NCBI GenBank assembly: GCA_038245785.1
Contig: JBBRSB010000023.1
Location: 1-64,000, forward strand
Direction: 5' to 3'
DNA from: Gloeobacterales cyanobacterium
GTDB lineage: Bacteria > Cyanobacteriota > Cyanobacteriia > Gloeobacterales > PMM-0068
Length of the DNA stretch: 64,000 nucleotides
Position numbers and translations under genes: made by a program. Shown piece by piece: positions 1-1,173 of this stretch. Each line of letters opens with the position of its first letter. Position 1 is the stretch's first letter. Under the pieces are notes generated by a model. That model did no database searches and was not told the origin of the DNA. It saw nothing but the letters and a program-made list of their open reading frames with translations.

Positions 1-16
1 ACCCCTTGTATGTTGA

Positions 17-175
17 GAGTGAGCGGTAAACCGATAACCCCTTGATACTGGATATCGTGGCTGAGCCTAGGTTGCCGCTTACTCGCTCTTGAACCCGAAC
101 AGTCGCTTGGGGCCATGACCCCGTATGAGCAAGGGCGGGTCTTGACCGGGACGGCCTGCTTACCGAGTTGGAGAT
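17..175 (+). ncRNA. IS110 bridge RNA (target-binding and donor-binding loops); ends approximate
   Basis: Stem 17-29/72-84 encloses guides ATAACCCCT (34-42) and GGCTGAG (59-65), which match the flanks; stem 93-97/136-140 encloses ACAGTCGCT (99-107) and GTATGAG (123-129), which match the element ends. Confidence 0.85.
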
Positions 176-181
176 CTAGCC

Positions 182-1135
182 ATGAGCCAAATTTGGGTCG
201 GGATTGACGTAGCTAAAGCTCATCTCGACGTTGCCTTTCGCCCTAGCGGAGCTGCCCTGCATTTTCCGAACAGCCCCTGCGGAATCGAGCAGTTGTTAAG
301 TCACCTGCGTTCCGTTGAGCCCACCTTGGTGGTTTTAGAAGCCACAGGCGGTCTACAGATTCCTGTTACCGCAGCCCTTGCCCAAGCGGGTATGGCCGTG
401 GCGGTAGTCAATCCCCGCCAAGTGCGTGCCTTTGCCCGTGCCACCGGCAAACTTGCCAAAACCGATACCCTAGATGCGGCTATCCTGGCCCACTTTGGCG
501 AGGCACTCAAGCCGGAAGTACGCCCTTTGCCCGATGTCCAACTTCAGGAATTAGGGGAATTGCTGGGTCGCAGACAGCAGGTAGTGGAAATGCTGGGGAT
601 GGAAAATAATCGTCTGGCCACCCTGCACTCTAAGCGAGCCCAACAGGATGTCAAAGAGCATATCCACTGGTTACAAAAGCGTATTAACACCCTGGAACAA
701 GAACTTAAGGAACAAGTGCGCAACAGTCCGGTGTGGCGAGAGCATGACCAGTTATTGCGTTCGTGTCCTGGGGTGGGTCCGATACTATCGCTGGCGTTGT
801 TGGCTGATTTGCCGCAGTTAGGTCAGTTATCAGGTAAACAAATAGCGGCCTTAGTGGGGGTAGCGCCATTCGCCTGTGAGAGTGGCAAGTGGCAGGGCAA
901 GCGCCGTATCTGGGGAGGTCGCGCCCAAGTGCGACGCGTGCTGTACATGGCAACGGTGGCGGCAACGCGGTGGAACCCTGCCCTTCGCGAGTTTTACCAA
1001 CGATTGGTAGCGAAGGGGAAGGCGAAGAAAGTAGCGATAGTGGCTTGCATGCGCAAGTTGCTGACAATACTCAATGCCATGGTCAAACAGGGAGCGTTGT
1101 GGAAGACAGCTGAGTTGGCAGAAGAGGGGATTTAA
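182..1135 (+). CDS. IS110 family transposase/recombinase
   Basis: GIDVAK, LEATG and KTDTLDA (RuvC-like DEDD); C-terminal Transposase_20-type domain with ESGK serine and GRAQVRRVLYM. Confidence 0.97.
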   Translation: MSQIWVGIDVAKAHLDVAFRPSGAALHFPNSPCGIEQLLSHLRSVEPTLVVLEATGGLQIPVTAALAQAGMAVAVVNPRQVRAFARATGKLAKTDTLDAAILAHFGEALKPEVRPLPDVQLQELGELLGRRQQVVEMLGMENNRLATLHSKRAQQDVKEHIHWLQKRINTLEQELKEQVRNSPVWREHDQLLRSCPGVGPILSLALLADLPQLGQLSGKQIAALVGVAPFACESGKWQGKRRIWGGRAQVRRVLYMATVAATRWNPALREFYQRLVAKGKAKKVAIVACMRKLLTILNAMVKQGALWKTAELAEEGI

Positions 1136-1173
1136 GGGTTCAGCCCTTGACTCTCAACACAGTCGCTCAGCCG

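Follow-up and report, generated by a model that had tools for sequence, protein, structure and literature searches.

The IS621 element of Escherichia coli pairs a recombinase, made of a DEDD RuvC domain and a Tnp domain with a catalytic serine, with a CT core, a long left and a short right end, a promoter formed at the circle junction, and a two-loop bridge RNA that has A/G landmark bases, a discontinuous right donor guide and handshake guides (PMC11208160, PMC11208158). Most of its insertions lie in REP elements, and its commonest site contains an rG:dT pair (PMC11208160). ISCro4 (IS622; 10.1101/2025.05.14.653916; PDB 9t56), 88% identical to IS621, has been tested in human cells, and split IS622 RNAs were functional in a test whether or not they had the 5′ stem-loop. 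Earlier reports also describe orthologues with longer right guides, and bridge RNAs of varied structure. REP-like insertion sites are described for other IS110-family elements, which we liken to the present one from their descriptions: IS1594 of the cyanobacterium Anabaena (PMC3184786) and ISPpu9 and ISPpu10 of Pseudomonas putida. Another family member, IS4321/IS5075 of the IS1111 group, is aimed at the terminal inverted repeats of a different mobile element. The IS1111 group has sub-terminal inverted repeats and a bridge RNA in the right end, whereas in the IS110 group the longer left end holds the RNA (PMC11208160).

We analyzed a stretch of 64,000 nucleotides (the window) from the genome of a Gloeobacterales cyanobacterium (G000), beginning at base 1 of contig C23. 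A first-pass annotation, made from the letters alone, had described an IS110 element with a bridge RNA at the start of the window and had named a cyanobacterium as its host. Both statements were borne out, the host being a cyanobacterium because its genome carries genes for PsaA and PsaB. The element shares with IS621 all of the traits listed above, including a palindromic repeat as natural target with an rG:dT wobble at the commonest site; its target and donor sequences differ from those of IS621, and its repeat caps DUF559 cassettes. Every testable feature of the IS110 group was found, and this is very likely an IS110-group insertion sequence that is autonomous, has spread recently and operates as IS621 does. 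As such it is an ordinary, slightly more compact representative of a known RNA-guided class. Its features outside the bridge RNA are as follows.

1 to 4, + strand: left target positions 4-7 (ACCC), host DNA common to all copies.
5 to 6, + strand: left CT core; one core at the rebuilt empty site, aligned to loci of G001 and G002 (same genus).
7 to 11, + strand: right donor half TGTAT, the start of the left end; the motif is also present in homologues, where it was used as an anchor.
9 to 14, + strand: -10-like hexamer TATGTT of a promoter formed at the joined ends, with a function suggested by IS621.
182 to 1135, + strand: IS110 recombinase, 317 aa, with PF01548 and PF02371.
1147 to 1152, + strand: -35-like hexamer TTGACT, within the short right end.
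1159 to 1167, + strand: left donor half ACAGTCG plus right CT core, identical at five of six true right ends.
1168 to 1172, + strand: right target CAGCC, host DNA that matches the guide perfectly and lies outside the palindromic repeat.
1174 to 1758, − strand: flanking CYTH-domain host gene, outside the element, with its stop codon 7 nt from the core.

The recombinase matched PF01548 (E = 3.7e-24) and PF02371 (E = 6e-20), and both the DEDD RuvC-like N-terminal domain and the C-terminal Tnp domain with its catalytic serine are present in the 317-aa protein translated from the window. The only two matches in the PDB were ISCro4 (E = 3.5e-41) and IS621 (E = 8.4e-41); the IS621 protein is distant, and the element is a distant orthologue of ISCro4. 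In the alignment, D9, E53, D95, D98 and S234 correspond to the catalytic residues D11, E60, D102, D105 and S241 named for IS621 (PMC11208158), and they were invariant across seven aligned proteins. The nearest proteins were metagenome sequences with 93, 86, 86, 77 and 74% identity. Scanning contigs of other genomes for homologues yielded four distant loci only (45 to 51%), and there was no close relative among the plasmid matches listed (n = 15, 48 to 52%; 9 further records fell in the 60 to 80% band). The recombinase had been called compact, which is nothing special for the protein (the median of the 120 best homologues is 316 aa); the RNA is predicted at about 120 nt. The left end spans 175 nt and the right end 30 nt, with the bridge RNA in the left end, as in the IS110 and not the IS1111 group. 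The sequence strings quoted in the first-pass annotation were all found where it had placed them, including the ORF at 182-1135.

The left flank reads ACCC-CT-TGTAT (1-11) and the right end ACAGTCG-CT-CAGCC (1159-1172). The proposed CT core was present at all 10 left junctions outside the window (each ACCC-CT) and at all 6 true right junctions, with a single core and no extra duplication at the empty site. The proposed donor, ACAGTCG-CT-TGTAT, also stood; its right-end half, with the core, has one change, in a derivative on C28. Joining the ends would place the two hexamers 17 nt apart, giving a putative sigma70-type promoter (TTGACT-17-TATGTT) across the junction, whose function we assign by analogy with IS621. 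The minus strand of the ORF contains one promoter-like match, which is at chance level (1 found versus 0.4 expected). The 17 runs listed included no RNA run holding the element, and the joined right end-left end sequence was not found in the contigs of four DNA runs, which are presence data; neither result has a bearing on circles or expression.

An identical left end occurs on seven contigs including that of the window, over 124 nt, and an identical right end on three, and the copy number is about six. The body of the element was assembled once. In run X1, possibly the source sample, unitig depth was 375 over the element and 57 to 60 beside it, and the unitigs ended at 1 and 1170; unitig depth is no copy number, yet it agrees with six copies. 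Three right ends were assembled versus six left ends, and one full-length pair could be joined. Among the true right junctions we did not count a match on C8 (four mismatches, chance-like) or one on C15 (a remnant without donor half and core). We also observed variant ends and internally deleted, non-autonomous derivatives (C28:54512-54952, C15:39397-39576 and ends on C20, C37, C27 and C45), which were probably moved in trans. In four derivative left ends, A replaces G at window position 60, and three derivatives hold another palindromic insert in the remnant ORF.

Because the window starts at the start of its contig, its left flank is an assembly branch point. Orthologous loci in G001 and G002 link the right flank to contig C19, where this copy's own left flank ends in TCT, and the rebuilt empty site aligns with those loci with one core and no added duplication. 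From this synteny and the rebuilt site, the window copy entered TCTACCC-CT-CAGCC. The first-pass annotation had expected ATA before position 1, as part of a 14-bp target, ATAACCCCTCAGCC. The bases that precede ACCC at the 10 other left junctions are TAC, TCG, TCT, AAA, TCA, GCA, TCA, CCA, AGA and TTG; positions 1-3 of the proposed target were thus wrong. Its implied usual right target, CAGCC, occurs only in the window, the other five right junctions reading CT-CAGTC. Aligning the flanks of other copies, a check it had suggested, gave a fit of positions 4-14 to the guides at all junctions seen. The site in the window lies between the stop of the CYTH gene and the next minus-strand ORF (242 aa; C19:86084-86812), about 20 nt before the start of that ORF, on which the insertion could be polar.

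The bridge RNA predicted in the left end has the following parts.

21 to 141, + strand: predicted bridge RNA, about 120 nt, both ends estimated; no space for a 5′ stem-loop.
21 to 80, + strand: target-binding loop, with stem 21-27/74-80, A28 unpaired, 29-32/70-73, and inner hairpin 44-47/53-56.
35 to 42, + strand: left target guide, effectively 8 nt (TAACCCCT); A34 is a linker after the conserved G33.
59 to 65, + strand: 7-nt right target guide GGCTGAG, in which G60 recognizes C, or T through a wobble.
66 to 67, + strand: target-loop handshake guide; C66 can pair donor G7 after exchange, and C67 cannot pair donor C6.
99 to 107, + strand: left donor guide ACAGTCGC plus T107, after landmarks A92/G97; tracks the donor in homologues.
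109 to 122, + strand: donor-loop hairpin 109-112/119-122 with A118 unpaired; G123, which follows it, is a structural G.
125 to 133, + strand: discontinuous right donor guide, consisting of A125-T126, bulged G127-A128, wobble G129, and C130-A131-A132-G133.
134 to 135, + strand: donor-loop handshake guide GG, complementary to target C7 and C6.

The two-loop, IS621-type architecture that had been proposed is supported by the landmarks, guides and handshake bases. IS621 has four landmark pairs, each of a flipped-out A and a syn G, at A43/G48, A67/G72, A116/G121 and A150/G155 (PMC11208158). All four have counterparts here with identical spacings, namely A28/G33 and A52/G57 in the target loop (corresponding to A43/G48 and A67/G72) and A92/G97 and A118/G123; six of these bases, A118 and G123 among them, were invariant in a 10-sequence alignment, and A52 and G97 were kept in 9 of 10. 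The right donor guide of IS621 consists of A157-U158, two flipped-out bases, the G161 wobble and C162-G165, followed by the handshake bases 166-167 (PMC11208158), and the discontinuous guide at 125-133 has the same layout. Under the handshake rule (PMC11208158), three of four pairs are possible after exchange versus one of four before it. The left target guide is one base shorter than the nine of IS621, and the right target guide is naturally 7 nt, compared with 4 nt in IS621 (7 when engineered). IS621 has a 5′ stem-loop, which is also the consensus among its close orthologues; the present element seems to have no room for one. The left donor guide lies 92 nt into the left end, the shortest such distance of 54 (median, 122), and the target-loop stem begins 7 to 9 nt past the -10 hexamer, from which the start site is predicted.

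We next compared the guides with chance in 100,000 dinucleotide shuffles of positions 7-181. A 6-nt left-target match, as in the string quoted earlier for 34-42 (ATAACCCCT), arose in 12.5% of shuffles, GGCTGAG in 3.9%, and ACAGTCGCT, the 9-mer at 99-107 that exactly copies 1159-1167, in 0.013% (13 of 100,000); the three together arose in none of the 100,000. The motif AT-N2/3-R-CAAG, that is, the right donor guide in the IS621 register, arose in 0.8%. Three of the four guides in the first-pass annotation hold: the left target guide agrees with the 10 other left junctions, GGCTGAG fits all six true right junctions by C or wobble T, and the left donor guide copies its donor half, a match rare in shuffles. 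The element was thus correctly recognized and partly misdecoded; the annotation missed the promoter at the junction, the handshake bases, the number of copies and the repeat as target.

The 13-bp stem described earlier (17-29/72-84) can form, with two of its 13 pairs being G-T, but the conserved register differs. Pair 28-73 is broken in 6 of 10 rows of the alignment, whereas the register 21-27/74-80 with A28 unpaired and 29-32/70-73 has 95.4% of cells paired and four compensated pairs; the outer part, 17-20/81-84, is at 62.5%. In the donor loop, 95% of cells are paired in the hairpin, and the outer stem is weak (59%). Folding the left end had been suggested as a check; the fold of 7-200 was no more stable than shuffles (z = −0.35). 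We did not use this minimum-energy fold for the RNA model for that reason and because it pairs both donor guides with each other. An Rfam scan of 1-1300 returned no match up to an E value of 1.

To follow guides and sites across relatives, we took the best 80 of 386 confirmed metagenome loci and 9 others. Both ends were present in 59 of these 89 loci (30 lacked one end), and removal of 5 duplicates left 54 distinct homologues; 4 had no full left target, leaving 50, and 19 of the 50 were not position-anchored, leaving 31. The ends were located with the -35 and TGTAT motifs as anchors, so these are conserved by construction. CAAG, or the covariant CGAG where the donor has CTCG, followed the left donor guide in all 54 homologues, and in 52 of them AT preceded the wobble base by two or three positions. 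Where the target has C7, the first handshake base of the donor loop was G in 33 of 40 homologues; where it has T7, that base was A in all 7. Among the 50 homologues, the guides matched their own targets better than those of others (13.1 versus 10.0; 0 of 20,000 permutations, a figure that overstates significance because kin are not independent), and the own target was best or tied in 25, one of which (L051) is an empty tie in which no guide was found. In the 31 anchored homologues, Watson-Crick pairing was seen in 8 at position 1, in 15 at position 2 (plus 10 wobbles), in 25 to 28 at positions 3-7, and in 22 to 28 at positions 10-14. Landmark G and core T are 9 apart in the window and in 26 of the 31, compared with 10 in IS621. 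We infer from these alignments that the clade uses an 8-nt left guide, which would leave target position 1 unread.

Guide and site had changed together in close relatives, on the left in G006 (left guide TTTATCCCT, flank AATATCC) and on the right in G002 (right guide GGATTAG, with a right flank CT-AATCC on another contig). The relatives' predicted targets gave no support for abundant repeats in G002 (6 versus 6 in the control) or G006 (2 versus 0). As a separate observation, G008, from the same order, had 17 equal-scoring matches (e.g., L011) to an IS110 with donor CTCG and right donor guide CGAG, which reads as a clean compensatory change. A distant homologue, L064 (57% identity), has as its left guide the same nine bases as 34-42, and its site differs at positions 1-4.

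Guides and junctions together give ACCC-CT-CAG(T/C)C as the working target, which includes an rG:dT wobble; position 1 is apparently unread and positions 2 and 3 are loose. A was found at position 1 in one of eight sites; position 3 matched the guide in three of six identical copies and in five of eight with variants included, versus 25 of 31 homologues. Guide matches at positions 2 and 3 were not in excess over unoccupied sites (P = 0.62 and 0.31). One form of the target, ACCCCTCAGTC, has 62 genome copies compared with 1.8 expected from a fifth-order Markov model, and ACCCCTCAGCC has 2 compared with 2.4 expected. The abundant form opens a palindromic unit, and five of the six right flanks belong to this palindrome; the window site, a perfect guide match outside it, is the exception. 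G60 pairs C directly and T by wobble, and many sites are open to the element since this wobble fits the tip of an abundant intergenic palindrome; the A60 of the derivatives is a direct match to the repeat. A related repeat subfamily (eight units; C6, C24, C28, C35, C38 and C55) carries the same target to position 12 and G at position 13, and none of the six right flanks derives from it.

Among 68 units with at most two mismatches, 42 form 21 convergent pairs that enclose 27 to 483 bp. DUF559 genes lie within two pairs on C59 and beside a third unit on C4, and other interiors are related; palindrome-capped examples with intact or decayed DUF559 genes are C59:2878-3331, C59:8565-9047 and C1:389256-389496. 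One element copy lies within the end of a DUF559 cassette on C59. The exact 20-mer pattern gave 45 hits in G000, 2 in G002 and none in the 19 other genomes searched, G001 included. At one orthologous locus of three tested, the interval was shorter by 220 bp in G002 and 158 bp in G001, and the cassette is apparently absent from this one comparable site in both. We found no description of palindrome-capped DUF559 cassettes in the literature, as covered by titles and listings, with subscription papers mostly outside this scope. Other full DUF559 genes (C4:66227-66538, C12:89589-89903 and C13:65821-66141) are each flanked by their own, different pair of inverted hairpin repeats, so that DUF559 and palindromic repeats may be linked more generally. 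We also noted in G000 a second element with a 20-bp terminal inverted repeat. Its six ends (four of one type, two of another) all fall in the palindromic repeat that the IS110 element targets, within the loop of its second hairpin (C6:155797, C15:98801, C15 near 270 on the minus strand, C63:7108, C14:102599 and C34:52630), and its body was not found.

One rival reading is the exact decoding of the first-pass annotation, with GTATGAG at 123-129 as right donor guide and the full 14-bp target ATAACCCCTCAGCC. GTATGAG can indeed pair CTTGTAT with three wobbles, and GGCTGAG matches the right flank of this copy in 7 of 7 positions. However, a 7-mer able to pair CTTGTAT with free G-T wobbles arises in 33% of shuffles, so the pattern is at chance level, and G123, its first base, is the conserved structural G. 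An orthologue in G006 with 85% identity (L034) has TT at 127-128 despite the same left-end donor half. We rejected this register, as its core-pairing AG is kept in only 2 of 54 homologues, this element included, and we place the guide at 125-133. With ATA at none of the 10 left junctions and no copy of the 14-mer in the genome, we give the exact decoding almost no credence. It is also very improbable that the element is now inactive or that the window copy is an assembly composite of decayed copies. A single assembled body for about six copies and the several internally deleted derivatives would fit such a history, but one 955-nt unitig of X1 covers 216-1170 without other letters, a 1,287-nt contig of run X2 contains 1-1170 with zero differences, the ORF and catalytic residues are intact, and the left end is shared letter for letter by seven contigs.

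A more serious alternative accepts guide pairing as necessary and adds a need for the repeat hairpin beside the target, making the palindrome the effective target. ISPpu10 reportedly needs a stem-loop at its target, matched in sequence and structure (10.64898/2026.03.19.712850), the right flanks derived from the repeat (five of six) are capable of forming hairpins, and many homologues, judged by eye, also lie in hairpin-like repeats. The window site, however, seems to be without a stem-loop: it stands outside the repeat and has the weakest fold of the six (−12.3 compared with −19.9 to −33.9 kcal/mol, RNA parameters), which argues against a strict hairpin need. Furthermore, 62 of the 64 free 11-bp target matches come from the repeat, so that its abundance alone explains the site bias. 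We therefore regard a hairpin requirement as unlikely.

By homology with IS621, the element would be released as a circle in which the right end is joined to the left end over the CT core. The joined ends would build the TTGACT-17-TATGTT promoter, from which a bridge RNA of about 120 nt could be made. Its donor loop would pair the circle junction through the left guide (99-106) and the discontinuous right guide (125-133), and its target loop would pair host DNA through the guides at 35-42 and 59-65. A recombinase tetramer would then swap strands at CT, with C66 and G134-G135 favoring exchange. The guide fits the tip of the repeat via the G60 wobble, and a perfect match outside the repeat can serve too, as in the window. 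Excision reportedly lags behind insertion in efficiency (PMC13626964) and might set free a single-stranded circle, amounting to copy-and-paste (10.64898/2026.08.31.748434); either fits several identical copies. Anatomy, copies, sites and covariation are thus read from DNA, and expression, circles and reprogramming are projected from relatives; homology and natural covariation suggest that the guides are programmable.

Bridge recombinases are mined as genome-editing tools, and the activity of orthologues varies much: in human cells, 18 of 72 gave detectable product, and a quantitative assay placed one above its limit. Since its guides are decoded, it has about six natural sites and its RNA is short, the element is a reasonable screening candidate, and it offers a ready test of the 8-nt left guide in its clade. 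It changes no concept, as bridge RNAs are common in IS110 elements (predicted in 85.7% of those catalogued) and repeat targeting is known, a cyanobacterium included. The clade and its short RNA may already be catalogued in the supplements of PMC11208160; in titles and listings, with subscription papers mostly outside this scope, we found no study of a cyanobacterial bridge RNA element. The repeats it targets, as a family, may have been explored less. Tentatively, and with considerable doubt, the element can be viewed as a minimal bridge system of natural origin (about 120 nt of RNA lacking the 5′ stem-loop, 8-nt left and 7-nt right target guides, and preset handshake bases) with a guide retuned to the tips of apparently undescribed, lineage-expanded, mobile palindrome-capped DUF559 endonuclease cassettes; one mobile family would then have two parasites, an RNA-guided family and a second insertion sequence.

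Two further observations concern related elements. At L037:1466-1570 (G002:C140), the left end has its first 36 bp in duplicate, and the second copy begins within the first one's left target guide; this is either an element inserted in its own guide or a short tandem duplication. The genome G000 holds three further IS110 elements, on C224, C226 and C7:26247-27227 (50, 50 and 36% identity), and C224 and C226 are each a stand-alone contig that has a CT core at either end and guides of its own.
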